From the IMG/VR virus record IMGVR_UViG_3300028532_000077: a DNA stretch of 13,618 bases. One strand, 5' to 3'. A program made the position numbers and the translations under genes. The DNA is from a virus. Taxonomy: Duplodnaviria > Heunggongvirae > Uroviricota > Caudoviricetes. The notes beneath the pieces are model-generated. The model was not told the origin of the DNA and searched no databases. It saw only the letters and a program-made list of their open reading frames with translations. Shown here one piece after another: positions 1 through 13,558 of the stretch (within the stretch, counting starts at the first letter, position 1; every line of letters starts with the position of its first letter).

Positions 1-111
1 ACTGCCTGATGTCAGAACAGTATTTTGATGAATTGCCAAGGTTACAATGGCACAAATGCGGCACAGGAGGAAACGTGGTGTATTTAAATATGGGGTAACT
101 CTTTGATTTTA

Positions 112-131
112 ATGGTGCCGATAATAGGAGT
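112..131. repeat. attL-type direct repeat (tRNA 3'-end copy)
   Basis: ATGGTGCCGATAATAGGAGT is identical to 13482-13501; it duplicates the 3'-terminal 19 nt of the tRNA-Thr gene at the other end of the window. Confidence 0.8.
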
Positions 132-273
132 AAAACACTCGATTAATCTCGTGTTAATGCCATCACCTACGACCATTACTAATTGATTGAATCTTATAGA
201 AAAATCATCATTTTCTATGCGTCACAATCAATTTTCACATTACAAACGCTCCGACACTTTAGCCGGAGATTTT

Positions 274-1551
274 ATGAGATACAAGCCTAACCAATACTTA
301 ATCTGTGATTCTTACGGTAACTACTATTTGAGGATCACGTTGCCTGTGTATATGCAGCCCTTTTTTGAAGGAAAAAGGACGTTTGTCAGAAGTCTGCACA
401 CAAGTAATCTTCGTGTTGCACGTAGAAAGCGTGATCAGATTGCAGATGAATACCATTGCTTACGGGAGAGTGTTGCCCCTGTAAACAGCACAATAGAAAA
501 CACGCTGGAACTGTTACGCAGTAAGGCTAAATACGCCAAAACAGCTACCAGAGTGCAAGATACAGCGTCTTCGTGTCCGTCATTGCTTAAAATTCTTGAA
601 ATCTACCTGACAATTAACAGCACGAAGAAGAAGCCAGCCACTTTAGCTAAGGCAAGAAAAGCGGTAGAGATGTTTCTCTCCTACCGTAAAAAGCCTGATA
701 TTGCATTGCAAGATGTAAGCCGCACCACTGTTACAGGCTGGATTGAACACATGCAAAAAACTCTTTCACAACAATCAATTGCAAATTATATCAGCCCAAT
801 GGCCCAGCTATGGGAATTAGCTTCATCACGTTACCACGATGCGCCAGAAAGGGCGCTCTCCCCCTGGCGAGGGCATAGGCTTGATGTGGCACAAAGTAGA
901 GAGAGCTACGAGGCATTTTCTAACAAAGAGCTATTGCAGGTGTTGCAAGTATTTTCCGGTAATTCAGCAGAAAACAAAGAAATGACGGCTTTGTGTCTTA
1001 TCGGTTTATATACAGGTATGCGGATCAATGAGATAGCAAGTCTCACAATAGACGATGTGAAAGAGATCGAAGGTGTGCTGTGTTTTGAAATCACACAGGG
1101 AAAAACGAAAGCTGCGGCACGTCTTGTGCCTGTGCATAGCCTTATCACTCCATTGGTGTTATCTCTTCGTGAAAAGCCTCACAATGGCTTTTTGTTCTAT
1201 CACGCCAGCATTACAGAGCGTGCTGACGGTAAACGCTCTACGTGGCATACACAACGATTTACAAGAGCTAAACGAAAGGCTTTAGGGGAAAAGGGAACAG
1301 AAAGGAAAGTGTTTCATTCTCTGAGACACGGAGTAGCACAGCTTCTTGATCGAAATCAAATTCCAGAGGACCGCATAGCTTTAATTTTGGGCCATCAGCG
1401 CGGCAATACAGAAACATTCCGCACATATAGCAAGAATGCAGCTTCTCCAGTAGAGCTTAAAAAATATATTGAGCTTTTACGCTACCCTGAAATAGAGAAA
1501 GGCTTATCAATCAATAAAAAATCAAATTTAAGGCGTAAAACAACGCCATAG
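274..1551 (+). CDS. int: Tyrosine recombinase / phage-type integrase
   Basis: C-terminal catalytic signature visible in translation: LYTGMRINE (Arg), HSLRH (His-x-x-Arg), LGHQRGNTETFRTY (His ... Tyr nucleophile). N-terminus YGNYYLRITLPVY...GKRTFVRSL resembles the arm-binding domain of phage integrases. Start chosen at ATG 274 with GGAG 5 nt upstream; ORF is open from TTG 187, ATG 217 also possible. Confidence 0.9.
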   Translation: MRYKPNQYLICDSYGNYYLRITLPVYMQPFFEGKRTFVRSLHTSNLRVARRKRDQIADEYHCLRESVAPVNSTIENTLELLRSKAKYAKTATRVQDTASSCPSLLKILEIYLTINSTKKKPATLAKARKAVEMFLSYRKKPDIALQDVSRTTVTGWIEHMQKTLSQQSIANYISPMAQLWELASSRYHDAPERALSPWRGHRLDVAQSRESYEAFSNKELLQVLQVFSGNSAENKEMTALCLIGLYTGMRINEIASLTIDDVKEIEGVLCFEITQGKTKAAARLVPVHSLITPLVLSLREKPHNGFLFYHASITERADGKRSTWHTQRFTRAKRKALGEKGTERKVFHSLRHGVAQLLDRNQIPEDRIALILGHQRGNTETFRTYSKNAASPVELKKYIELLRYPEIEKGLSINKKSNLRRKTTP

Positions 1552-2355: not shown

Positions 2356-4257
2356 TTAGTTAACGCTACTCTGTCCTGACAACGTGCTAAGAATCAGATT
2401 CGAACTAAACTGATTGTTGTTCGCTCTGATCTCAGTGCGGATTAAATCCTGAAAGCCGGGACCGTTAGGGATGACGTTAACAGAGATCATATCACTCGGC
2501 ACCGTAACCTGTGCATTCACGTTAACAGGAGTTGCGTATTGACGTTGTAGGCTTACAGTCGGCTGATAGGCTTCTGCTTTACGTGCAACAAGGGTTGATC
2601 CGTAGCTGTTAGCATTGCCATTAATTAAATCAGTCCACCACCCTGGAACGCCGGACTGTGTTTCCTCACCGCGCACAATACGCCCTACATCTTTCGTATC
2701 GAGTCCAGTTGCATAACGAATACCTTCATTGATAATCGTTGATGGCGACCATTCCCCATCTGTAACAGCGTCCATAACCTTTTGTGTCTCAGGTCTGTTA
2801 TCATTCTCACCACGGCTAAGATGTTTATTAATCCAGCTTGTGATTTGATTCCCGTAAGAAGTCATAGAGGTCAGTAATACAGCGCCTTGTTTAGCCAAAT
2901 CCCCGAACGATGCACCAACACCATAAGCTGCATTCTGTAAGGCTTTGCTTTCTTCCGGTTTGAGTGCTGGCATGTTGGCTATGCCATCAAAGAAGCCCAA
3001 AATAGCCTGATTCGATAGTCCATCTGTCAGACGGTCAAAGGCTGTAGCTGTCTTGTTAGCTGCGCGATATTGCTCTTTCTGTGCTTCTGTCAGTAGCTGC
3101 CCGTTGTTTTCCATATCAACCATCGTTTTACGGAACTCTTCCCCATCACGGGAAAACATCTTGAGATAATGGCTGGCATCGTCTGCTAATGGTTCGATCA
3201 GGGATATGATGGCTTCTTTAGTCATTCCTCGGCGTTCACCTTCTCTCACCACGTCTTGCAGGAGTTGCAGCGGTCGCCCCTGGTAGGAAGCTATCTTATC
3301 TTTGTTCCATGCAAAGGCATTCTGAATATCATTTAATGATCCTTCCCCGCCTCGCCACTCTTTTTTCTTACTATCCCATTCAGCAGTTCGGCTTTGATGA
3401 CCAATGCGTTCGTTTAAGTCTTTGATATTGTCAGTGGTCTTGTCCACGCTTGCACTTGATACACCGTTTGCCCTCCCCCAATTAACCATTGCAGCCACCT
3501 GGTTGGAGTCTGCGCCTACCAGATCGCTCATCTTCTGCAATTCCATACGTTCACGGGCTTTTTCCATTCCAGCAGATACAGCCATACTTCCTAAGCCAAC
3601 GGCAGCGCCGCCGATAATGCCACCAACACCGCCCATCATTAACGCGCCACCGCCGCTAACACCTTCTTTGTGGAGCTTCTTAGAAGTAACTGGATATACA
3701 CCCCCAGCGGCAGCATTACGACGCGTAGCAGCGGCTGCGGCTCGTCTTTCTAATGTGATGCGGTCACGGATCAGGGCATTCATCTTCGCTTGCGATATAG
3801 CGCCGGATTCATAGAGGCGGGTTTGTTCCTTAATGTAACGTAGAGCATCGTGATATTTCTTAATATCCATCCCTTCGCCATAGCGGGAATTGTTCTTGAT
3901 GCCTTGTAACTGGCGATATGATGCAAGGCGCTTGATCTCTGCCTTTTCAGCAATTGAGGCTTGTTTAGCCTGTGCTTTAGCGAGGTTTTTAGCTTCCTGT
4001 AGCTTCTGTTTAGTGCTGGCTTTAGATGCCTGTGTCTCAGATTTAACAGCCCGCTTAACATGCTGATCATGCTGGCGCTGAATCTCTTTTCCCAGCCTCT
4101 GTAAATCTTTCTGACGTGCTGCCGCCACTTGCACAGGTTTGATCCCCTGCATCTTCTTTTGTAGCTTATCCACTTCATTCTTAGCTTTCTGTAAGCTCTT
4201 GAAATCAGTGGTAAATGTCACAACATTACTAATTCGTGAGGCGGTAATTTCTAACAT
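2356..4257 (-). CDS. Coiled-coil / glycine-zipper protein (633 aa), tape-measure-like or ejection-protein-like
   Basis: N-terminal ~170 aa are K/Q/A/E-rich heptad-like (LQKAKNEVDKLQKK..., KQKLQEAKNLAKAQAKQ); central hydrophobic Gly-rich segment GGGALMMGGVGGIIGGAAVGLGSMAVSAGM as seen in phage tape-measure and pilot/ejection proteins; no enzymatic motif recognised. Confidence 0.75.
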   Translation of the reverse strand: MLEITASRISNVVTFTTDFKSLQKAKNEVDKLQKKMQGIKPVQVAAARQKDLQRLGKEIQRQHDQHVKRAVKSETQASKASTKQKLQEAKNLAKAQAKQASIAEKAEIKRLASYRQLQGIKNNSRYGEGMDIKKYHDALRYIKEQTRLYESGAISQAKMNALIRDRITLERRAAAAATRRNAAAGGVYPVTSKKLHKEGVSGGGALMMGGVGGIIGGAAVGLGSMAVSAGMEKARERMELQKMSDLVGADSNQVAAMVNWGRANGVSSASVDKTTDNIKDLNERIGHQSRTAEWDSKKKEWRGGEGSLNDIQNAFAWNKDKIASYQGRPLQLLQDVVREGERRGMTKEAIISLIEPLADDASHYLKMFSRDGEEFRKTMVDMENNGQLLTEAQKEQYRAANKTATAFDRLTDGLSNQAILGFFDGIANMPALKPEESKALQNAAYGVGASFGDLAKQGAVLLTSMTSYGNQITSWINKHLSRGENDNRPETQKVMDAVTDGEWSPSTIINEGIRYATGLDTKDVGRIVRGEETQSGVPGWWTDLINGNANSYGSTLVARKAEAYQPTVSLQRQYATPVNVNAQVTVPSDMISVNVIPNGPGFQDLIRTEIRANNNQFSSNLILSTLSGQSSVN

Positions 4258-4291
4258 GTTAATTGTTTCCCTGTATTATGATTATTGTTTG

Positions 4292-4489
4292 TTATTGTTT
4301 TTTAGAGCAATAATATTGGATTGCCTCAAAAGTGCTGCACCCAGTCTGAAACACACGCTGCCGCACATTATTTGCATCAATTGAAAGCATTCTGCATAAG
4401 GCACTGACATTGATTATTGAGTCATCGCTAATAGCTGCCAGTTCTTTTACAGCCTTAAGAATAAAGGATTGTGGGTTTTCTGTATTCAT
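4292..4489 (-). CDS. Small hypothetical protein (65 aa)
   Basis: ORF between the 343-aa and 633-aa genes on the same strand; weak purine-rich RBS (GAGAGAAAACC); no motif recognised. Confidence 0.45.
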   Translation of the reverse strand: MNTENPQSFILKAVKELAAISDDSIINVSALCRMLSIDANNVRQRVFQTGCSTFEAIQYYCSKKQ

Positions 4490-4640
4490 TGGTTTTCTCT
4501 CACATATATATTTTTATTTGGGTTTGTAGACAGTAGAAAAACAAAAAGGGCAAAGAGATTCGTTACTGTATTTGCGCCTACAGGTTAGTTAATCCCTTTA
4601 CCCTTATTGCCCCGATGGGGAATCGTCTATTAACGCTTTA

Positions 4641-5672
4641 TTACGCAGCAGATCCGAAGATGATAGCTTGCGGAATGTTGTTTACTGGCAGATAAGATGT
4701 CTCAGTAACCACAGATGGGAATTGGAATTCATCCTTGATTAGATATTGGTGATGCAACACGGCATCTTGACCTAACTCAGCATGACGCACACCAACGCCG
4801 CTATGAAGCTGGTAACACTGTGCCGCTTTATCCATTACCGGAACAATTGCGAAACCGTTCTCTCCGATGTGAGCAACAATCTCAGGAAACATTGACACAT
4901 CAATAACAGTGATCCCACCAATCTGGAAAGAGTCATAGGCTGGGTTAGAATCAACCATACGGGTAAACAGGGCCGTAGCACTCGCATCACCTGCATATTT
5001 CACCATGTCACTGATCAGCGGGTTAGATGACAAACCATCAGCAGCAGCGCCAGCAGCAAAGATAATTACACCAGTTCGCTTTGCAGCAAGACCAGACCCC
5101 AGCTTTTCACTCTGTAAGCGCACCGCTTTACGAATAGCAAGGAACGGGTTAACAGTAGTCGATGCAAAGTCGATAGCGGGTACCGTGGTTTTAGCCTGAC
5201 CGTCGAGGAAGTCGAGATCACCTTGTCCGGCATATTCAGATTCAACTTTCAGTCCCAGCAGCGCGGTAATCAGATCCACTTCAACACGGTTTGCGTGTGA
5301 ACGGTAATGAGCCTCAGAGAAATCATTAACCGCTACCAGCATAGCATCAGAACGGTTTGGATATTGGCGGCTGTATTGTTCCAGGTCACGAGAAGTAACA
5401 GCGTTAATACTGCCGACGTGTTTCATCTGGAAAAGTTTGTTTGACCATTCCTGACGTTTAGAAGCGTTCCAGTCGCTTTGAGCGTAAGGCGAGGTTTCCC
5501 CGGCTACCTGCACAAACTGCTCAATCAGGTCGGTAAGAAGAATGCTGTTTTCTGTATGATATTGCACATCGAACAGATCGAGATTAGTAATCAGGGTATT
5601 AAGTGCATTCTCATAAGCAAATGGAGTTACTACCGCAGTATTAACGCCAAAATATGTTGATAAATCATTCAT
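4641..5672 (-). CDS. Putative major capsid-like protein (343 aa)
   Basis: Size and position match the major capsid gene of lambda-like head modules (about 340 aa, immediately after an about 120-aa gene); AAGGAAAATAAT RBS; mixed alpha/beta composition with no nucleotide-binding or catalytic motif. Assignment is from context only. Confidence 0.6.
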   Translation of the reverse strand: MNDLSTYFGVNTAVVTPFAYENALNTLITNLDLFDVQYHTENSILLTDLIEQFVQVAGETSPYAQSDWNASKRQEWSNKLFQMKHVGSINAVTSRDLEQYSRQYPNRSDAMLVAVNDFSEAHYRSHANRVEVDLITALLGLKVESEYAGQGDLDFLDGQAKTTVPAIDFASTTVNPFLAIRKAVRLQSEKLGSGLAAKRTGVIIFAAGAAADGLSSNPLISDMVKYAGDASATALFTRMVDSNPAYDSFQIGGITVIDVSMFPEIVAHIGENGFAIVPVMDKAAQCYQLHSGVGVRHAELGQDAVLHHQYLIKDEFQFPSVVTETSYLPVNNIPQAIIFGSAA

Positions 5673-5686
5673 TATTATTTTCCTTG

Positions 5687-6070
5687 TTAAGTCGTAGGGA
5701 TCGCAAGTTCTTCATAACCAGCAATTACAAAGCCGAGAGATTGCAGTTTTGCAATAACACTTGCCTTTTCCATGCTGTTAAATTCAATCCCATCTTCAGC
5801 CAGAATAACGAAAGTAGGATGTGCAACCACTACGCTTTCCTGTCCTTCATAAGCCGGTTCAACTACTACGTGAGCAATATCAGATGCGGTTGTTGCTTTG
5901 GTGCCATCGGCTTTCAGCAAAGCCCCGACAATAAGATCGTCAGTGAGAGGTGAAGCCAGTTTGACGAGGCGATCTTGCAGCACTGGATCAGCAGCGTAAG
6001 CTACTACCTTACAGCGTGAACGGGAGTTATCCGCATTCACTGCTTTTAATTTTCCATATGGGTTAGCCAT
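5687..6070 (-). CDS. Putative head decoration / scaffold-like protein (127 aa)
   Basis: Stop lies 14 nt from the start of the 343-aa gene; nearly identical AAGGAAAATAAT RBS context; size and position resemble gpD-type decoration proteins upstream of major capsid genes. Context only. Confidence 0.5.
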   Translation of the reverse strand: MANPYGKLKAVNADNSRSRCKVVAYAADPVLQDRLVKLASPLTDDLIVGALLKADGTKATTASDIAHVVVEPAYEGQESVVVAHPTFVILAEDGIEFNSMEKASVIAKLQSLGFVIAGYEELAIPTT

Positions 6071-6074
6071 AAGA

Positions 6075-6272
6075 TTATTTTCCTTTCAGTTGTTTAATTT
6101 TAGATTTAAGGGCATCAGCAAGACTAACCGCATCAGCCGATTTAAATAATTGAGCAGTGGTAGAACGAAGACTTTCGGGAGTAACTCCCAACAGTGCGGC
6201 AACCTTAATGAGGTTTTCATCACTAACAATCATCGTTTCCCCGTCTTTGCTGATAATCATTTCTTGTTTCAT
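6075..6272 (-). CDS. Small hypothetical protein (65 aa from ATG 6272; ORF open to 6314)
   Basis: First gene of the leftward virion-like operon; AGGAA 8 nt upstream of ATG 6272; stop is 4 nt before the next start; the longer ORF start at 6314 would run into an upstream hairpin. Confidence 0.55.
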   Translation of the reverse strand: MKQEMIISKDGETMIVSDENLIKVAALLGVTPESLRSTTAQLFKSADAVSLADALKSKIKQLKGK

Positions 6273-7266
6273 AAATAACGTTCCTGTTAGTGCCAGACAA
6301 ATAAAAAGCCCCAATGCCGTAAGAGGTTAATTCTGACCAGCAAAGGGGCTTTAACGTGCGGGCAATTACATAATTGATAAGTTAAACTATAAGAGGATTA
6401 AACATATCAGCAAATACACTTTTTAAATATACTTGATGATATGCTTAAAGAGTGAATATCAGACCTTAGAAAGGAAGGCTCTTAGGAGTTTGCCACTGGA
6501 ATCACTAAGATCTGATATTCTGGGTGCGGTGGCTAACCGCTGCCTGTTTTTGCTGTGGATGCAACAAAGTAAGGCTTTAAGGAATCACTATTCCAATTCT
6601 CATCTACTCACAGATCAAATTTTAATAGGATTAACTACACCAACAATAATCTACCGTTTCAGAAAAAGCGTTTTTACAACCAAAGATTATAGATTTGCAG
6701 TCTATAAAACCCGTTTTGCTATCAATATTTCCAAAGGTTATTGCACAATTCTTAGCTAAACTCTCTACTTGCGGCTAACGCTACGCAGATGATAGTTTTT
6801 TGACAACAACTTAATAGATTATTCTGTTACTAACTTCTGTCATTAAATAAGAGTTTAATGATGTTAGTAAATAGTTATAAAATATAACTATCAGTGTAAG
6901 GCTCTTTAATGTTTTCGGACAAAATAAGGAGCTTTAGGATAAGCATAGATGAAAAATAAGAGCGGGAAGGGCAAGGAGATAACACCTACCCGCTTTTATC
7001 AAAATTAAGCACAATGCCTAACAACATTCATCAACACAACGTAGAAACAATCAACAATCAAAGAGGGAGTTATGATTATTCTAAAACTTCTTGAGAGATG
7101 GAAGGTAATATTTGTTAGAGGTTAATGCCACTCAACCCTTGAGGCTATCACCTTCCATATGCAGGGATTTATGACAGTAGAAGGATTAACACCAGTCAAA
7201 ACCTTTTTATCTACCCCTAATATCATTATATAATGAAATCGCTATAAATGCAAATGATTTTCATTG

Positions 7267-7575
7267 TCATTTAGAGAAAATAGCACTTTTTGCTAAATCA
7301 TCTACTAATTGCTGAATCTCTTCACTTGCAGCCTTTAACGTGCTGGCGGTGTCTGTGATGGTTTGAGTACACAGCCTGACATCGTCCTTAGATAGCTCTA
7401 AATCGCTCACCAGAGAGATGAAATCGTCAAGGCTTACATTCACCTTCATTAAGCTACTAACGCATTGAGAGAGCGTGTAATCGCATAAATCTGAATAGGC
7501 TTGATTGATACGTGTCTGTAGGGCGATCATCCGATCCGAAAGAGTGTCCATAACTTCCAGAATGTTGTCTGTCAT
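7267..7575 (-). CDS. Hypothetical small acidic helical protein (102 aa)
   Basis: ATG overlaps the stop of the upstream ORF (ATGA coupling at 7572-7575); AGGAG upstream; no motif recognised. Confidence 0.65.
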   Translation of the reverse strand: MTDNILEVMDTLSDRMIALQTRINQAYSDLCDYTLSQCVSSLMKVNVSLDDFISLVSDLELSKDDVRLCTQTITDTASTLKAASEEIQQLVDDLAKSAIFSK

Positions 7576-7844
7576 TGTGCAATCTCTCCTTGATCTGCTG
7601 ATTCCATCTCTTGCTGAATCTGTTTAGCCTTGTTTAGTGCAATCTGTAGCGGTATACGATAGGTTGCAATGTCATCCAGCACATCATCAAGCAAGGCAAA
7701 ATCATTTTCTTCTTTTGCTCGTTCAGCCAGTGAAATAAACACTTCTGCAAGTTGTTTTGCTTCTTTAAAAAATGTTGTTTCTAATAGTTGATAGTTAATC
7801 ATTATTTTTCCTTTTTCGATTATTTTCATTGGGCGCTTATACAT
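7572..7844 (-). CDS. Hypothetical small helical protein (90 aa; likely true start at 7802, 76 aa)
   Basis: In-frame ATG at 7802 has a good AAGGA RBS at 7-nt spacing, whereas the ATG at 7844 has GGGAG only 1 nt away; translationally coupled to the downstream 102-aa ORF. Confidence 0.65.
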   Translation of the reverse strand: MYKRPMKIIEKGKIMINYQLLETTFFKEAKQLAEVFISLAERAKEENDFALLDDVLDDIATYRIPLQIALNKAKQIQQEMESADQGEIAQ

Positions 7845-7859
7845 ACTCCCATCATTTTA

Positions 7860-8243
7860 TTAGTTAGAACGTTTGTTAGAAGCTAATGTATCTTCTAAAT
7901 GAGCCATCAGATCGACTTCCGATGCACCACCTACACAATTATTGAAAGCGTTAAATCCCAAAAAATGATGATAGGAGCTAAACCCTAAAAGTTGCCAACG
8001 CTTCAGAGTGCCATCAGAAATTATTGTTTGTTTTCTTGTTCTTGGGCGAAAGTAAACGCCTGGCATTGACTGGATTATTTCTAATTCTTTATTACTTAAT
8101 TCAGGGGATTCTATTTCAAGAATAAATATTATCTCTTCCCCTGGAATTTCATTATTGGTATGTGTCGGTGGACGTTGTCTTTTTGAATTGAAATTACTGT
8201 TTTTTTCAATACGTTTTAAGTTATTCTTTTTCTTTCTTCCCAT
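7860..8243 (-). CDS. Hypothetical protein with basic N-terminus (127 aa)
   Basis: GAGGG RBS 5 nt upstream of ATG; N-terminus MGRKKKNNLKRIEKNSNFNSKRQR is strongly basic (possible nucleic-acid binding); no catalytic motif recognised. Confidence 0.65.
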   Translation of the reverse strand: MGRKKKNNLKRIEKNSNFNSKRQRPPTHTNNEIPGEEIIFILEIESPELSNKELEIIQSMPGVYFRPRTRKQTIISDGTLKRWQLLGFSSYHHFLGFNAFNNCVGGASEVDLMAHLEDTLASNKRSN

Positions 8244-8378
8244 TTTCCCTCTTTTTATGTGGATTATAAAAACTTAATGCCATAGTTACGATGAATATCG
8301 CCATAAATGCACTTGCCATATGTATTGCCCGATCTGTTGTTACTGATTGTTTGTGATGTTATAAATCATTTATTCTCC

Positions 8379-9047
8379 TTAGAATGGTATTGAATCGTAT
8401 ATTTCACTTTTTTCTCTTAGAGATATTATCAGATCGTGAAAAGCCTGTTTCTCAAGATAGATATTCTTTGAATCTAATGCTCGTTTTACAAAATCTTCTG
8501 TTTCTTCGTGCGGTGGTTTCTTCTTATCAAGGGAAAGAAGCCAAGTAAAAATTTCGGGCCGCTCAGGGAACTCTGATTCCTGTGTTTCTTCTTCAATGAT
8601 GATTTCTGAAACATTCAATATTTCATTAGATTCGTCTTCTTTCTCAGAAGGATCAGGTAGTGATGACTCTCCAGGGGGAGTAATATGTGCATCTGTGAAT
8701 GGTAATGCTTTATAGAGTGATGTTTGCCCGTCCCGAGCCTCTACAGAAAGAACTCCCATATCAACAAACATATTTATAATATTGCGAACCTGGCGATCAC
8801 TAACCATTCCAATATTAGATAATGTTTTTTGAGTGGCGTAACATTCTTGCCCTTGTTCATTGAATCCAGCTATATAGCTATAGATTTCAACGGCTGGCAG
8901 TGTAGCGGTGTATTCATTACCTGACGGTGAGAACCACTTTTTAAACATCTTCAACCACTGCTCAACGACTACATATTTTTGTTTACCATCTTTCTGATTT
9001 AGACATTTGGCTTTCGCTTCGGCAATTGTTTTGATATTTTTGATCAT
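8379..9047 (-). CDS. Winged-HTH DNA-binding protein (222 aa), candidate replication initiator or regulator
   Basis: Strong AGGAGG RBS before ATG 9047; segment YATQKTLSNIGMVSDRQVRNIINMFVDMGVLSVEARDGQTSLY has the pattern of a winged helix-turn-helix; acidic C-terminal tail (EDESNEILNVSEIIIEEETQESE). Confidence 0.75.
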   Translation of the reverse strand: MIKNIKTIAEAKAKCLNQKDGKQKYVVVEQWLKMFKKWFSPSGNEYTATLPAVEIYSYIAGFNEQGQECYATQKTLSNIGMVSDRQVRNIINMFVDMGVLSVEARDGQTSLYKALPFTDAHITPPGESSLPDPSEKEDESNEILNVSEIIIEEETQESEFPERPEIFTWLLSLDKKKPPHEETEDFVKRALDSKNIYLEKQAFHDLIISLREKSEIYDSIPF

Positions 9048-9171
9048 TTAGTTCCTCCTTTGTAAGGACTGTAATTAGTAATTCATTAACAAGTTTTGGA
9101 ATTGATTTCCCTTCTGCCTTTGCACGATTTAACAACGCGTTATAAGTTGCAGAATCAAAATTAATATTCAT
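8983..9171 (-). CDS. Ribbon-helix-helix (CopG/Arc-like) DNA-binding protein (62 aa)
   Basis: MNINFDSATYNALLNRAKAEGKSIPKLVNELLITVL fits the beta-strand then two-helix RHH pattern; GGAGAAGGAG RBS; 3' end overlaps the start of the wHTH gene by 65 nt in another frame. Confidence 0.65.
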   Translation of the reverse strand: MNINFDSATYNALLNRAKAEGKSIPKLVNELLITVLTKEELNDQKYQNNCRSESQMSKSERW

Positions 9172-9194
9172 TTGGTTTTCTCCTTCTCCTGTTA

Positions 9195-9371
9195 TTATTC
9201 TTTCTCTGCTTTACGCAGTTCATCAATAATTTTTAGTGCATCGTCAAAACATTTTTCACGCTCTGGATAACCACAGCGTCGCGCTGTGTTCCTATTCATT
9301 CTTACCCTAAAGCGGTTGATCTCACCACGTTTCCAGGCTTCAACTACATCTTGAGAAGTGAAATACTTCAC
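9195..9371 (-). CDS. Small hypothetical protein (58 aa, GTG start), first gene of the regulatory operon; not in the supplied ORF track
   Basis: GTG at 9371..9369 preceded by a perfect AGGAGG at about 8 nt; in-frame to TAA at 9197..9195; basic protein (…RFRVRMNRNTARRCGYPERE…). Confidence 0.5.
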   Translation of the reverse strand: MKYFTSQDVVEAWKRGEINRFRVRMNRNTARRCGYPEREKCFDDALKIIDELRKAEKE

Positions 9372-9494
9372 TAATTAACCTCCTATTCTATTTGGTTAAA
9401 AGAAAAAGACACCTTGCAAGCCTCTTGGGCTTCAAAGTGCGGTGCATTGGTTTAATTATTTAGAGGATAGGAATGTTTTCCTGCCCCTAATATT

Positions 9495-9523
9495 ACTTTA
9501 CCATAACTAAAGGCTTTTGTCAA
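9495..9523 (-). promoter_or_regulatory. Candidate sigma70 promoter for the leftward regulatory operon
   Basis: On the minus strand: TTGACA (9523..9518), 17-bp spacer, TAAAGT (9500..9495); about 120 nt upstream of the GTG at 9371. Confidence 0.4.
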
Positions 9524-9787
9524 CCCCCACCCATAAAATATTGATCATTTTTCAGTATGTTATGATTTTGCTTAGCAATTCGTGCTCTTCTGTGTGATGC
9601 TATTCTTCCTTATTCTCTAAAACGCGTTCTAACGAGGTTTTGATAAAAACAATACATTCCCTTATGTAATGACAGTTTAGCTCGCCTACGGCTTGATTTA
9701 AGCGGTAGAAACTTATTTAACCTTCAACTACTAAAACCATTCTTTTTTGTTTGTTGTTGGTTGTTGTCTGTGTCTATGTGCTAACAT

Positions 9788-10060
9788 CGCTAACGCGTAG
9801 CACACAAGGTTATTGCACTCGTCAGAGTATTGCACAATAGATTTTCTCTTAAATAGATTGATGATCGTTAGATTGGCGTAAGCCTCATCAATGGAACTAT
9901 TGAAGCGCACAGCGCATAGACACTAACAACCATTCGCTTACGCTCAGGTTATTGCACAAGTAAATTTCAATCGTTAGATGGTAGTTAGTTAATTATCGTT
10001 CTGCGCACAGCGCAAGACTATTTAGCCTTACGCAAGCCGTAGGCTATTTGCACATAGTAG
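9788..10060. repeat. Modular imperfect tandem duplication (about 100-bp period) with recurring short motifs
   Basis: TCGTTAGAT at 9865 and 9971; GCGCACAGCGCA at 9905 and 10003; GGTTATTGCAC at 9808 and 9947 with variants at 9827 and 10043; GCTAACGC at 9788. Confidence 0.6.
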
Positions 10061-10200
10061 ATTACATATTCGTTGTGAGCGGCATTAGCGAACATAGATC
10101 TACTAACTAACATCAACAAACAAAAACTATGTGTTATGACAAGCAGTCTAACGACTAACACTCTAACTTGTGCAAGGTTCTGGCGAATGCCAATAGATTA

Positions 10201-10235
10201 AGGGATAGTCGTTAGACTCCCTAACGGGTATCCCT
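10201..10235. repeat. Nested perfect inverted repeat (stem-loop)
   Basis: AGGGATA gt CGTTAG actcc CTAACG gg TATCCCT: outer 7-bp and inner 6-bp perfect stems; followed by about 60 bp of AT-rich DNA (10236-10295). Confidence 0.6.
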
Positions 10236-10295
10236 ATAATTATTCTTATAAAGATAAAAAAGAATTATATTATATAGTTTAATTGTAGTATTGTC

Positions 10296-10394
10296 GGAAA
10301 TCATTTCCTAGGTGATAGGAACTCATTTCCTAGGTAGGTAGGAAACCACTTCCACGGTTATTTCCTAAATAGATCGGAACTCATTTCCCAGGTG
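10296..10394. repeat. Iteron-like array: four 19-bp direct repeats, each with internal dyad symmetry
   Basis: GGAAATCATTTCCTAGGTG (10296), GGAACTCATTTCCTAGGTA (10318), GGAAACCACTTCCACGGTT (10341), GGAACTCATTTCCCAGGTG (10376); spacing 22, 23 and 35 bp; each copy contains GGAA-N5-TTCC. Confidence 0.7.
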
Positions 10395-10860
10395 TTATTT
10401 ATACTTATCGGGTATCAGACTTGATAGGGGTAGCTCACAGTGACCTACCGTTACATCCAATCATCACATAACATCTGTGCAATGATCTTCTAAAAGTGTT
10501 TCTTGCTACCAAAATTAAACATCTAAAACAGGCTTAAATTCAATGTAATTGATGATTAATCCCTGTGTAATTCCTACGTAAAAATCCAATGAAAAGTAGC
10601 TTAAAAAGTGCAATGTTAGCTTTCTTCACTTTTGCGTCATCATCAGCAAAGCCTTATGTTATGCGGCATATAGCGCATCACTGCAAAATTGTTGCTCAAT
10701 AAACGTTCTATCATTTGTCGAACAAGTTCTTTCACGTGTTGAAAATTTATGTTTAAATTTGCTTTCAATCTTTAATGTGCAATCACTATCAACATAAAAA
10801 TAAAAAACCTTCTATTATATTTCATAGCATACAAAAGTCAATAGAAGCCCTCTCGTGCTC

Positions 10861-11244
10861 CTACGTAAAAAATCCACCACTTTTCCCCTTATACATCAAC
10901 TCAAGGCGTTCTATGTGTTCCTTAGTGCATATTACGATTATTATGTTAAATGGATTTTGGACTATATTTTGACCTGCACCCGCATAAACACTGGTTTCAT
11001 CGCTTACAGCCCTTGTGAGACGTGGTGCTGTTTCTAGCATCTGATCCGACATAAAACCGATCATTCTCGTGTTTAGTGAAAGTTTAGTGAGATACATTAC
11101 AGAAAGGCTTTCTGTGTAATGATTTAATAGGTAAAAACGATGTTGATTACGCAAGAAAATTCCTTGCTGATATTTGGGGATTCTGGATTTTCCAGATCGG
11201 GGGGCGGTGAAAATCGCGTTAAGCACTTCTCGCAATCTAGCCAT
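10861..11244 (-). CDS. Questionable ORF (127 aa)
   Basis: Open frame only; no purine-rich RBS before the ATG (CCCTTCCC context); translation has no recognisable features. Listed because nothing else occupies this interval. Confidence 0.2.
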   Translation of the reverse strand: MARLREVLNAIFTAPRSGKSRIPKYQQGIFLRNQHRFYLLNHYTESLSVMYLTKLSLNTRMIGFMSDQMLETAPRLTRAVSDETSVYAGAGQNIVQNPFNIIIVICTKEHIERLELMYKGKSGGFFT

Positions 11245-11260
11245 AAGGGAAGGGATAAAG

Positions 11261-11300
11261 GTATTTAGATGTATTTATAGCTATTTATGGCTATTTATTT
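11261..11300. repeat. Four tandem 10-bp AT-rich repeats (helical phasing)
   Basis: GTATTTAGAT / GTATTTATAG / CTATTTATGG / CTATTTATTT in exact 10-bp register. Confidence 0.5.
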
Positions 11301-11460
11301 TTTATTTACCTTAATTTAAAAATAGCCTTATAAATCAATAAGATACAGGACTATCTGTTTATATTTTGATCAATTAAATCAAGTTTAATACCCTTAAACC
11401 ACCTGAAAATAACCTTAAATACCCCAATAATTAATTTTAACGATTCCTGTGCTCTCTCCT

Positions 11461-11531
11461 ACTTTGCAAAAAGGCAAAAAAGCCCATAGAGGCACAAAAA
11501 TATTAAAACCAATAACTCAATAATGCCTCTA
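11461..11531 (-). terminator. Putative terminator downstream of the 183-aa gene
   Basis: Perfect 8-bp inverted repeat TAGAGGCA (11487-11494) / TGCCTCTA (11524-11531); on the minus strand the hairpin is followed by a U-rich tract (GGGCUUUUUUGCCUUUUUGC). The 29-nt loop is long, so only moderate support. Confidence 0.35.
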
Positions 11532-11549
11532 CAAGAGCTTCTCTAACTG

Positions 11550-12101
11550 TTATTTTTGATTGAGCTTACATCGATCCCATTGTTCTGTCGTTCTTGTGAT
11601 ACGATCGCTTATTGCAAAATTTAATAGCCAAGAATCATAAGCATAAACCTTGCTTTTATCATCTGCCATCATAAACTTGCCGTTAGCATTCAGTTTTGGC
11701 GATATCAAATATGTTCCATTTAATCTGTTAGCCTTGAAGCTATCTGCATATAAAGTTACTTGTGCGTATCCCTGAACACGTAATGCCCCTAAACGTCCGT
11801 TTTCGATTGATGCAATAGAGTATTGGCAAAGATAATTTTTGGCAGCAGGAGTCGTTTTCACTCCTTCAGTTTTTCGTGAATTATTTGATTGCGAGCTTCG
11901 AATAGAGGATGAAGGATAAGAGTATGAATGATTTTTATAAGATGAAGGGGCATAAGAGCCAATCCGGCACGTCTTACCAACAGCTATACACGAGTTACCA
12001 CAAGGTATTCCTTTTTTGCAGTTTTTAGCAACTGCGGTAGAAGTTCCCCCTACAAACAACGTTGTAAAAATCATCATCCTCACAAATGCAGACCTGCGCA
12101 T
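11550..12101 (-). CDS. Secreted Cys-motif protein of unknown function (183 aa)
   Basis: Strong GGGAGG RBS 5 nt before ATG; N-terminal signal peptide (MRRSAFVRMMIFTTLFVGGTSTAVA, Ala-x-Ala cleavage context); mature N-terminus C-KKGIP-C-GNS-C-IAVGKT-C has four spaced cysteines; then a Ser/Tyr-rich linker. Confidence 0.8.
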   Translation of the reverse strand: MRRSAFVRMMIFTTLFVGGTSTAVAKNCKKGIPCGNSCIAVGKTCRIGSYAPSSYKNHSYSYPSSSIRSSQSNNSRKTEGVKTTPAAKNYLCQYSIASIENGRLGALRVQGYAQVTLYADSFKANRLNGTYLISPKLNANGKFMMADDKSKVYAYDSWLLNFAISDRITRTTEQWDRCKLNQK

Positions 12102-12390
12102 ATAACCTCCCTTTTTAGATTATTCTTATGCTATACACTTGCTTAAAAAAATAAAAGTGCCCTCTAACCTTTATCGTTCTCCATCACAATTTGAGAAGTA
12201 AGAGCAGCAACCTCAAGCGATGATCACGTTTGCGCCGATTTCAGAGAAAAAGACAGTAACTGAACTCACTATGAAGGCTAAACGTATCTTTACACTTGAT
12301 GAAAACGTTCAAAAAACAACCTAACCCCAAAATTCAACAAATAACAACATATTGTTTTTAAAAGAAAATTAAATCTACATCAAATATTGG

Positions 12391-12419
12391 TTGACGTAGA
12401 TTGAGGTGAATAGTAGACT
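12391..12419 (+). promoter_or_regulatory. Candidate sigma70 promoter for the small plus-strand ORF
   Basis: TTGACG (12391-12396), 17-bp spacer, TAGACT (12414-12419). Confidence 0.35.
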
Positions 12420-12495
12420 ATTAGGGTAAATTGCCATTATTGCAACATCATTTAATGCATGTTCTAATCCTCCTATCCCAAAACCGGAGGAAGTT

Positions 12496-12654
12496 ATGCA
12501 TTTACTTTCAAAACATCTTCACACTATTCACTTTCTCGTTATTGATGTATTCATTGTGGCTATTAGTTACCGCATTTGCATCGCTTCCAGTGAAGAGATG
12601 GACGCTGTTGCAATTATTGCTCAAGCAATGGCGATGTTAACTAAACGACTTTAA
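12496..12654 (+). CDS. Small protein (52 aa) with a hydrophobic core
   Basis: ATG 12496 has GGAGG 5 nt upstream; encodes MHLLSKHLHTIHFLVIDVFIVAISYRICIASSEEMDAVAIIAQAMAMLTKRL; the SD can pair with TCCTCC 13 nt upstream (12468-12473). This frame differs from the 12431..12640 ORF in the supplied track. Confidence 0.4.
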   Translation: MHLLSKHLHTIHFLVIDVFIVAISYRICIASSEEMDAVAIIAQAMAMLTKRL

Positions 12655-12668
12655 TAATTTCACTATCA

Positions 12669-12710
12669 GGCGCATAAACACATCTTTGATCGCTGGATGT
12701 GTTATGCGCC
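12669..12710. terminator. Strong hairpin between convergent small genes (candidate bidirectional terminator)
   Basis: GGCGCATAAACACATC (12669-12684) pairs with GATGTGTTATGCGCC (12696-12710): about 15 bp with one bulge and an 11-nt loop. No long T-run on either side, so termination efficiency is uncertain. Confidence 0.5.
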
Positions 12711-12720
12711 TACTGGTGAT

Positions 12721-12873
12721 TCAATCCTTAAGCCATTTCAACTCACTAAGGAGTTTTCTTTCTTCGTTCTCTCTCTGTTTACGCTCTAGCCAGGCTTTTC
12801 CTTCTGGCGTAGACAGGAACTTACGAGCGTGAATCTTGCGGTTATTACGTTTGATAGCTGCAATGTTTTTCAT
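12721..12873 (-). CDS. Small basic protein (50 aa); not in the supplied ORF track
   Basis: ATG at 12873..12871 with AGAGG 7 nt upstream; encodes MKNIAAIKRNNRKIHARKFLSTPEGKAWLERKQRENEERKLLSELKWLKD; stop TGA at 12723..12721. Confidence 0.4.
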   Translation of the reverse strand: MKNIAAIKRNNRKIHARKFLSTPEGKAWLERKQRENEERKLLSELKWLKD

Positions 12874-13481
12874 CGTGTGCCTCTGTATTCATATGAAAAT
12901 TAACAAGTTACATACTACACAGGGAGACTACGCATAAAACACAATACAAGTAAAGATACATTTTCAAGACAATAGGAGCCATAAAGCGCCTTTGATGGGC
13001 TACCCCAAAAAATAAGCGCCGTAGGCGTATCCACTAAAAAGGGCTTTTTCACAAAAGCTATGAAGTCTTAGCAGTTCTTCTCTTATCAGGCACCCGTTGT
13101 ACTCCGGTGGACGAAACCGTGCTAGAGCTTGATTCTTTCCCGATCAAGTTAGGTTTTGAAGAGGTGGGCTTTAATCCACTATGCACTTAAAACTACTCTT
13201 CCCATCATTTAGCCTGTTTATCCTCTGCAACGTCATCTCGACGTGTAGCATCATTGGACACCGCGCCAGGTGTGGAACATCTTGCTAAGAGTTTTGGTAG
13301 AAGGTTTAGAGACGGTGGCACGTCTTCCAGCTTCAAAGGAACTTGTTACGAGGTTGAGCCTGGGAACTACTCGCCCATACGTGTTACACTACCAAAGCCC
13401 ATAACAACGTATAGGCGTTTGTAAGTGATAACAGAAGATACAATTTCTTAGAGAAGCTAAGCTAAGTTATTGATTTTCTTG

Positions 13482-13501
13482 ATGGTGCCGATAATAGGAG
13501 T
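13482..13501. repeat. attR-type direct repeat overlapping the tRNA-Thr 3' end
   Basis: Identical to 112-131. Confidence 0.8.
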
Positions 13502-13558
13502 CGAACCTACGACCTTCGCATTACGAATGCGCTGCTCTACCAACTGAGCTATGCCGGC
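13483..13558 (-). tRNA. tRNA-Thr (anticodon CGU)
   Basis: Reverse complement is GCCGGCATAGCTCAGTTGGTAGAGCAGCGCATTCGTAATGCGAAGGTCGTAGGTTCGACTCCTATTATCGGCACCA: 76-nt cloverleaf with D-stem GCTC/GAGC, anticodon loop TTCGTAA (CGT), T-stem GTAGG/CCTAT with TTCGACT loop, encoded CCA. Confidence 0.93.

Follow-up and report, generated by a model that had tools for sequence, protein, structure and literature searches.

Tape measure proteins (TMPs) encoded by satellites, and the chimeric tails built with them, were first demonstrated only in 2026, in the Vibrio PLEs. These elements encode their own TMP, a chaperone and a hub protein, and the chimeric tails, which contain parts of phage ICP1, exclude the phage TMP (Mathur, Boyd et al., Nature 2026, PMC12987554). 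The transduction of a PLE was poorer when its own TMP was missing (PMC12987554). ICP1 in turn encodes Odn, a fusion of the DNA-binding domain of the PLE replication initiator with a T5orf172 nuclease, which cuts the satellite origin (PMC8263062). According to Extended Data Fig. 10 of PMC12987554, some cf-PICIs appear to carry putative tmp genes, and EPIP satellites of Mycolicibacterium were reported with a TMP, a capsid protein and altered tail lengths (bioRxiv 2025, PMC12822802). In this study, a 633-amino-acid (aa) open reading frame (ORF) was investigated in a stretch of 13,618 nucleotides (nt) from the IMG/VR record IMGVR_UViG_3300028532_000077; this whole stretch is hereafter called the window. 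It was found to contain a whole 13.4-kb integrative island located in the tRNA-Thr gene (thrW) of Escherichia coli, between the proA and pao genes. Judging by homology, and by analogy with the PLEs, we concluded that the ORF encodes a genuine phage tail TMP and that the mobile island carrying it most likely lives as a satellite on virulent myoviruses of the Stephanstirmvirinae (phAPEC8-like and phi92-like types).

The protein was assigned by profile and pairwise searches. The PHROG 16051 family, 'tail length tape measure protein', matched with E=3.6e-72, so the tape-measure reading offered in an earlier note, made from the sequence alone, was upheld by the very profile search that the note had proposed. 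A BLASTP alignment with the 662-aa gp104 of phAPEC8 showed 32% identity over aa 197-632 (E=1e-62), and an E value of 6.7e-49 was recorded for the PDB entry 21vq_V, which is gp134 in the virion structure of phi92. When 50,697 phage genomes were searched by tblastn, 134 records were matched, none of them covering 80% of the query. Among the matches listed, all were myovirus genomes of 143-154 kb (Escherichia, Klebsiella and their relatives, including phAPEC8 and phi92-like phages), and the match was the annotated TMP wherever the phage record was annotated. The family was small: when 1.84 billion representative proteins were searched with a profile, 177 were matched at E≤1e-3, with full-length members of 596-668 aa and distant members sharing the central domain only. 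No significant family was found for the protein in Pfam and NCBIfam; DUF4056 was considered and discarded, the Pfam match being sub-threshold.

A multiple alignment revealed end-to-end homology between the island and phage TMPs, with invariant N- and C-terminal motifs and an overall identity of 29-34%. The phage proteins aligned to those of the islands over only about 61-69%, while the island TMPs resembled one another over the full length. Conservation between island and phage was highest in aa 1-41. The following region, aa 42-196, showed 14% identity and 57 indel columns relative to the phAPEC8 TMP, and 37-47% identity among island TMPs across genera. The identity to the phAPEC8 protein was 38% for aa 233-400, and at the C-terminus S627, G628 and Q629 were invariant in 12 sequences. 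In phi92, gp134 is a trimer whose C-terminal residues 631-656 were resolved inside the baseplate, and its 659 aa correspond to a tail of 24 rings (PMC13450770). The order of the parts in the Stephanstirmvirinae TMPs (phi92 gp134, phAPEC8 gp104) was the same as in the island protein: the N-terminus, a helical region, a Gly/Ala-rich stretch, a central domain and the SGQS tail. The phage proteins were 651-662 aa long, i.e., the island protein was shorter by 18-29 aa. The earlier remark that 633 aa would be short for a TMP was thus not sustained, as this length was normal for the family. The protein itself belongs to a known TMP family, in which it is new and diverged.

Public records (RefSeq, GenBank) name the protein a 'hypothetical protein', a 'cell envelope integrity TolA family protein' or a 'MICOS complex subunit MIC60'. 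All three labels are misleading, and the helical region, with its low complexity, is the probable source of the TolA and MIC60 names as artefacts. The conserved N-terminus (MLDINAAKISNVVTF...) was also recognized in Pseudomonas phage PsgM04F (L002:6161-6343), where it lay 5' of the annotated start of the TMP gene (6293); the deposited gene model is probably 5'-truncated.

The features of the island are collected in Table 1. The TMP gene was read from an ATG to a stop codon on the minus strand, the plus-strand frame being riddled with stops, and a Shine-Dalgarno-like AGGGAAA was located ~10 nt 5' of the start. The coordinates and length in the earlier note were correct; it had overlooked the strand, the adjacent tube initiator gene and the completeness of the integrative island.

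Table 1. Positions of the TMP gene, its segments and the other island features in the 13,618-nt window
Feature	Position	Strand	Basis
TMP homologue (the ORF under study)	2356..4257	minus	PHROG 16051, phAPEC8 gp104 and phi92 gp134 matches
TMP aa 1-41, conserved N-terminal motif (MLEI..S.I.N.VTF..D..SL..AK...P)	4135..4257	minus	54% identity to phAPEC8 TMP
TMP aa 42-196, charged, predicted-helical 'ruler', island-specific, shorter than in phage	3670..4134	minus	Alignment and AlphaFold2 helices
TMP aa 197-232, Gly-rich, glycine-zipper-like segment, putative membrane-inserting	3562..3669	minus	Hydropathy, GxxxG, position in homologues
TMP aa 233-400, conserved central helical domain	3058..3561	minus	pLDDT 79-90, many invariant residues
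TMP aa 587-633, C-terminal segment ending LSTLSGQSSVN, presumed baseplate-embedded end	2359..2499	minus	39% identity to phAPEC8
Tail tube initiator homologue (Dit-like), 218 aa	1626..2282	minus	Pfam Dit_like, phage identity, PDB
65-aa protein, conserved, encoded between capsid and TMP	4292..4489	minus	Position kept in all islands examined
HK97-fold major capsid protein homologue, 343 aa	4641..5672	minus	Phage_cap_E relatives and AlphaFold2 model
Head decoration (cement)-like protein, 127 aa	5687..6070	minus	Position, length, weak alignment
Small conserved ORF heading the structural operon (65-79 aa)	6075..6314	minus	Position and sequence kept in sister islands
Tyrosine integrase (DUF6538 and Phage_integrase)	187..1551	plus	Pfam, PHROG
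Attachment (att) repeat, tRNA-distal copy	109..136		28-nt direct repeat matching the tRNA-Thr 3' end
tRNA-Thr (CGT, thrW) with the second att copy at 13479-13506	13479..13558	minus	ARAGORN, Rfam; same site in annotated E. coli genomes
Rep-like replication initiator (HTH_36), 222 aa	8379..9047	minus	Pfam, PHROG replication-initiation families
Putative small regulator, 62 aa, upstream of and overlapping rep	8983..9171	minus	Weak PHROG 'transcriptional regulator' match
Putative origin with four iteron-like repeats of 22 nt (GGAAnTCATTTCC cores)	10292..10393		Repeat search

The N-terminal part of the protein (aa 1-196) was rich in A, K, Q and R. In an AlphaFold2 model built from a 12-sequence alignment, whose mean pLDDT of 54 means low confidence, DSSP helices covered aa 19-183 at a pLDDT of mostly 50-83. 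A simple heptad scan of this region gave no regular register. Therefore, the helical character of the 'long coiled coil' claimed earlier was predicted, while its heptad pattern was not recovered; judging by the model, a coiled coil in this region is plausible. The hydrophobic segment GGGALMMGGVGGIIGGAAVGLGSMAVSAGM occupied aa 202-231; it was present as claimed, but followed ~200 aa of such sequence and not ~170. Its Kyte-Doolittle 19-residue mean reached 1.63 at aa 204-223 and did not exceed 0.87 elsewhere, which made it the sole strongly hydrophobic stretch of the protein. With 36% Gly and five overlapping GxxxG motifs, it agreed with the proposed glycine zipper. A hydrophobic Gly/Ala-rich stretch was aligned at the equal position in the phage and most island homologues (means of 1.5-1.63). 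Within the C-terminal part, aa 233-633, a single confidently modelled helical domain was obtained (aa ~240-390, pLDDT 79-90), and the remainder was modelled poorly. This domain was the best conserved part of the family and was also common to more distant TMP-like proteins. A Foldseek search of the model against the PDB returned only non-significant helical-bundle matches, and against viral models (BFVD) the matches were mostly named tape measure proteins.

The Gly-rich segment was also considered as the active part of a membrane effector, i.e., a protein that would cause superinfection exclusion or abortive infection from the host membrane. Such a role would be in keeping with a single hydrophobic stretch of this kind and with the reported toxicity and difficult expression of TMPs (PMC12987554). 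We found it very unlikely, since the homology extended across the entire virion protein, including the N-terminal and the baseplate-embedded C-terminal motifs, a tube initiator was co-encoded, and no feature was less conserved than the hydrophobic segment when island alleles were compared. In addition, the PADLOC search, which covered the TMP and nine further proteins of the island, gave no match. The alternatives raised in the earlier note, a stand-alone ejection protein or an exclusion or abortive-infection factor, were set aside on the same full-length homology with its SGQS tail and the same PADLOC search.

The gene that directly followed the TMP gene encoded a tube initiator, with a Pfam Dit_like match of E=5e-28, an identity of 60-63% to the Stephanstirmvirinae 'tail tube initiator' and an E value of 1.1e-68 against PDB 21vq_N (phi92 gp135). 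In the Stephanstirmvirinae the TMP gene is likewise followed by the tube initiator gene. Unlike the phage genes, the island TMP gene was located in an integrative island lacking chaperone, tube, sheath and baseplate genes. Only the tube initiator gene followed it, and the typical tail module, with a chaperone gene ahead of the TMP gene, tube and sheath genes close by and baseplate genes after it, was not seen. This bore on the genomic context and not on the membership in the TMP family. None of the window ORFs matched tube, sheath, portal, protease, terminase or chaperone families in Pfam, PHROG and NCBIfam, and the earlier observation that no tail tube gene was nearby held for all window ORFs of at least 50 aa with regard to tube, sheath, portal and terminase families. 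It had been raised as a reservation about the tape-measure reading but does not count against it; instead, it was a clue to a reduced, satellite-like island. Apart from the TMP, the integrase and the capsid protein, no island ORF exceeded 222 aa. For all four virion-type island proteins (the tube initiator, TMP, capsid and decoration-like proteins), phage relatives were found only in myoviruses of the Stephanstirmvirinae type.

The island was bordered by a 28-nt direct repeat, 89% identical between its two copies and with a 19-nt exact core. The Rep-like protein matched Pfam HTH_36 with E=6e-5 and 23.3 bits, which is under the 25-bit cut-off of Pfam. The iteron-like repeats had palindromic cores, were spaced 22-35 nt apart and lay within a 1.5-kb non-coding stretch. 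From their arrangement, they probably form the replication origin, a likely target of Rep and of a phage protein of the gp053 type described below. The sub-cut-off HTH_36 match and the four repeats together make up a putative iteron replicon.

The distribution of the TMP gene was investigated further. Of 5426 complete E. coli genomes, 99 (~2%) carried it, at several chromosomal sites, and the exact 633-aa protein was recorded in 1,895 blocks of a public assembly index. A recurring gene order was observed: a small regulator, Rep, several small ORFs, decoration, capsid, a ~63-aa ORF, TMP, in some cases the tube initiator, and integrase. It was seen with TMPs of 29-57% identity in other E. coli and in Klebsiella, Pluralibacter, Citrobacter, Buttiauxella, Scandinavium, Kluyvera and Pseudenterobacter, and TMP was a core gene of the islands examined. 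For both TMP and the tube initiator, dN/dS was 0.17 at a dS of 0.34 when compared with a 91%-identical allele; both genes are under purifying selection. TMP/initiator modules of 99.5-100% identity were found beside capsid/decoration modules whose capsids were 20% identical (E=4e-5; L003:7988-9616 versus window 4641-6314), and the integrases beside near-identical TMP/initiator modules also differed (33% identity). These alignments point to a mosaic of exchangeable modules and to active recombination among the islands.

The same data were used to weigh the possibility that the TMP is a decaying, functionless leftover of a defective prophage. The thrW gene is the site of the cryptic prophage CP4-6 in K-12, most tail genes were absent, and some island copies were disrupted by insertion sequence elements, points in favour of a remnant. 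Against these points stood the low dN/dS, the same compact gene set in at least seven genera and the intact att sites. The region between the capsid and TMP genes, ~5 kb with 11 genes in the phages, was ~0.4 kb in the islands. Moreover, the only phage relatives found were myoviruses of ~130-155 kb belonging to, or matching, the Stephanstirmvirinae, with no integrase in the regions examined. A relation to CP4-6 was rejected, its right end being unrelated to this island. A remnant was therefore the least probable of the explanations considered.

An indication of mobility came from a relative of the island, a Logan contig of 14,281 nt (L018, SRR16178778) with a 57%-identical TMP. Its 30-nt terminal overlap gave a circle of 14,251 bp, the junction of which fell inside the island, so that the element ends were joined. 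The circle lacked the large integrase and contained only an integrase-like gene of ~190 aa. The contig may represent the element in an episomal or excised state.

Recent DNA exchange between the islands and the phages was directly evident. The 328-aa gp053 of Phapecoctavirus Mt1B1_P17 (L013:2168-3154) consisted of two tandem Rep-type HTH_36 domains and an endonuclease-type C-terminal domain. The first HTH_36 domain was 99-100% identical to the N-terminus of a 189-aa Rep allele of sister islands, and the second was 88-90% identical to the DNA-binding domain of the Rep allele of the window (8682-8960). The C-terminal domain matched PHROG 681 'endonuclease' with E=2e-18, and the Pfam matches to MUG113/T5orf172 were weak and sub-threshold. 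The Rep-derived segment was shared by phages BI-EHEC, muut and inny. Thus, gp053 has the architecture of Odn and, by that analogy, is an apparent counter-weapon against the island. Further, ~170 nt of island DNA (within window 8960-9200, minus strand) were found at ~98% identity in Justusliebigvirus PaulScherrer (bas60_0101, L014:2470-2710), and also in VEcB. This segment comprised the ribosome-binding site, the 62-aa putative regulator and the first rep codons, and the phage copy of the 62-aa ORF might mimic the island regulator. The Rep-domain chimera together with the ~170-nt transfer showed that the islands and Stephanstirmvirinae phages meet in the same cells, and they suggest antagonism between the two.

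As a rival explanation, the island was considered as a defence element only, which would protect the population by means of a TMP and tube initiator that act as dominant-negative mimics and poison helper tails, with no infectious island particles formed. Tail assembly is a known defence target, as in the Tai systems (PMC11364771) and in Rta of PLE11 (PMC12987554). The TMP termini that would contact helper parts were conserved and the ruler diverged, the phages carry the apparent counter-weapon, and packaging genes were not recognizable in the island; all of this agrees with interference. A pure decoy, however, needs neither a capsid and a decoration protein, nor an integrase with att sites at several locations, nor its own replicon. 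The island contained no conjugation genes, yet identical modules were spread across lineages and sites, and the PADLOC search gave no match. We regarded interference alone as unlikely. It is also not exclusive of the satellite explanation, since interference coexists with the building of chimeric tails in PLE.

For the satellite, the following sequence of events was proposed. On phage infection, the island would be induced to excise from thrW and would replicate by its own Rep/iteron module. One operon would be expressed, encoding the small ORF, the decoration-like protein, the capsid protein, the 65-aa protein, the TMP and the tube initiator. The island TMP would then dock in the baseplate hub of the helper, beside the island tube initiator; the retained phage-like N-terminus, central domain and SGQS end suggest that it can do so. 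The helper tube and sheath would polymerise around it and form a chimeric tail, the lumen of which would hold the island TMP in place of the phage one. Such tails would perhaps be about one tube ring shorter than those of the helper, as suggested by the ~57 gap columns of the ruler relative to phAPEC8 and by the protein being 18-29 aa shorter. The packaged island would reach the next cell, where contraction of the sheath would eject the TMP, and the Gly-rich segment would enter the inner membrane and help to form a DNA conduit; membrane insertion for DNA entry has been proposed for TMPs generally, and for the phi92 TMP in PMC13450770. By having its own TMP, the island would make its own tails while competing with helper tail assembly or evading inhibitors of tail assembly.

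The chimeric-tail role was proposed for the island TMP by analogy with PLE and ICP1. In both cases a small integrative island faces a virulent myovirus, and the Rep/iteron replicon of PLE has a putative counterpart here; the likeness is functional and architectural only. The PLE-like features seen in the island were the integrase and att sites, the incomplete set of virion genes and a diverged TMP together with a tail-core protein. The identity of the TMP to that of the phage was low in both (20% for PLE11, 32% for the island), and one baseplate-core protein was more phage-like in both (41% for BhuB of PLE, 60-63% for the island tube initiator). In both, a phage nuclease is chimeric with the DNA-binding domain of the satellite Rep, Odn in ICP1 (PMC8263062) and gp053 here. 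The two systems differ in the host and helper families. In contrast to the module of TMP, tail assembly chaperone and BhuB of PLE, the island had no chaperone or hub, and a tube initiator was found instead, in some members only. The island encodes capsid and decoration-like proteins, whereas the virions of PLE11 contain capsid proteins encoded by ICP1 (PMC12987554). Finally, unlike for PLE, the function of the island was deduced throughout from sequence comparison. As a system it would be PLE-like in its working but not a PLE, and, by the comparisons given next, outside the cf-PICI and P4-like classes.

In 2023, Alqurainy et al. reportedly described the capsid and packaging set of cf-PICIs as complete, with a portal, a protease, terminase subunit(s) and head-tail connectors. 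The island resembled cf-PICIs in being integrative, in having its own HK97-fold capsid protein and in that it must borrow tail parts. It differed in that no portal, protease, terminase or connectors were detected among its ORFs, which places it apart from the cf-PICIs, and in its candidate helpers, which are virulent myoviruses of ~130-155 kb. Those supplements of PMC12987554 that are available as text list no E. coli or Klebsiella elements. No match to Sid, Psu, Delta or the alpha primase-helicase was found in Pfam, PHROG and NCBIfam, so the island was not assigned to the P4-like satellites either. The EPIP satellites differ in their actinobacterial host, temperate helper and serine integrase, and they encode a small terminase, a scaffold and head-tail adaptors, which the island lacks.

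Several observations weighed against a satellite with chimeric tails. The window ORFs included no tail assembly chaperone and no recognizable small terminase, portal or scaffold, and no pac, cos or promoter mimic was found when the two large non-coding stretches (6300-7280 and 9372-10860) were compared with all phages by blastn, which returned no match. The capsid protein was very divergent, with ~25% identity at best to a phage capsid, which makes its assembly on helper parts a difficulty for this reading. The majority of the sister islands (the Klebsiella type and the E. coli P0052 type) had no tube initiator, which was present only in some E. coli members. The hydrophobic segment of the TMP, at 1.63, barely attained the classical Kyte-Doolittle cut-off of 1.6 and was weak in the Klebsiella-type alleles (means of 1.0-1.2). 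The circular contig could originate from a plasmid-like or tandem form instead of helper-induced excision. A scan of IMG/VR gave no island-sized complete viral contigs and so no sign of packaging; the matches were island copies in contigs of 20-63 kb, two fragments (5.0 and 8.7 kb) or phage contigs of ~150 kb.

Taking the homologies and the PLE analogy together, we considered the chances evenly balanced that the islands form an undescribed satellite family of the Enterobacteriaceae. Such a family would parasitise the ~150-kb Stephanstirmvirinae by producing small-headed particles and chimeric tails from a few replaced parts (capsid, cement, tape measure and sometimes tube initiator), and the phages would counter it with Odn-like nucleases derived from the island Rep domains. 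A full-text literature search of incomplete coverage found no description of this island family or of satellites of these phages, and an earlier description is possible. If this proposal holds, it would represent a second, independently evolved arms race of the PLE/ICP1 type, in a tractable host relevant to phage therapy, and an easy genetic system for how a foreign TMP is selected into the helper tail. If an unrelated island family of E. coli and Klebsiella does the same as the PLEs, tail remodelling would be a general satellite strategy. The candidate helpers (phAPEC8-, phi92- and BASEL Bas60-type phages) have been isolated and tested for therapy or biocontrol, and the islands could lower their efficacy or be mobilised between strains.

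The remaining virion-type genes were also analyzed. The capsid protein was 42-48% identical to proteins with Pfam Phage_cap_E and matched PHROG 29 weakly; its AlphaFold2 model matched the capsids of phages (phiTE, ICP1, Bas63 and lambda gpE) with E values down to 1e-10. The 127-aa protein gave a 25% alignment to the head decoration protein gp115 of phAPEC8 and a PHROG 2680 match of E=0.07, a weak indication that it is decoration-like. The 65-aa ORF upstream of TMP had no family match in Pfam and PHROG, and its identification as a tail assembly chaperone or a homologue of phage gp105 was rejected as unsupported by alignment. In public records, the tube initiator is called a 'phage baseplate protein' or a 'tail fiber protein'. 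The G+C content was 42-49% across the TMP and capsid genes (2500-5500) and 34-38% across the replication and regulatory half (6000-13000), which suggests that the two halves of the island are of different origin.

Over the whole window, Rfam detected the tRNA only, and the counts from promoter and terminator scans were not above those of shuffled sequence. The ~0.95-kb region upstream of the structural operon (6315-7266) had stops in all frames and no 3-nt substitution periodicity, and matched neither Rfam nor phages. It was 88-92% conserved between the islands, including L003, in which the adjacent capsid genes were only 20% identical, and it could serve in regulation or packaging or encode a non-coding RNA. 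The N-terminus of a 183-aa protein encoded at 11550-12101 on the minus strand resembled a signal peptide, and the protein also contained a Cys-rich stretch. Matches to PHROGs 2578 and 14768 (function unassigned; E~1e-17) and to Klebsiella prophage proteins were obtained with its C-terminal domain, and the island may carry this protein as accessory cargo.

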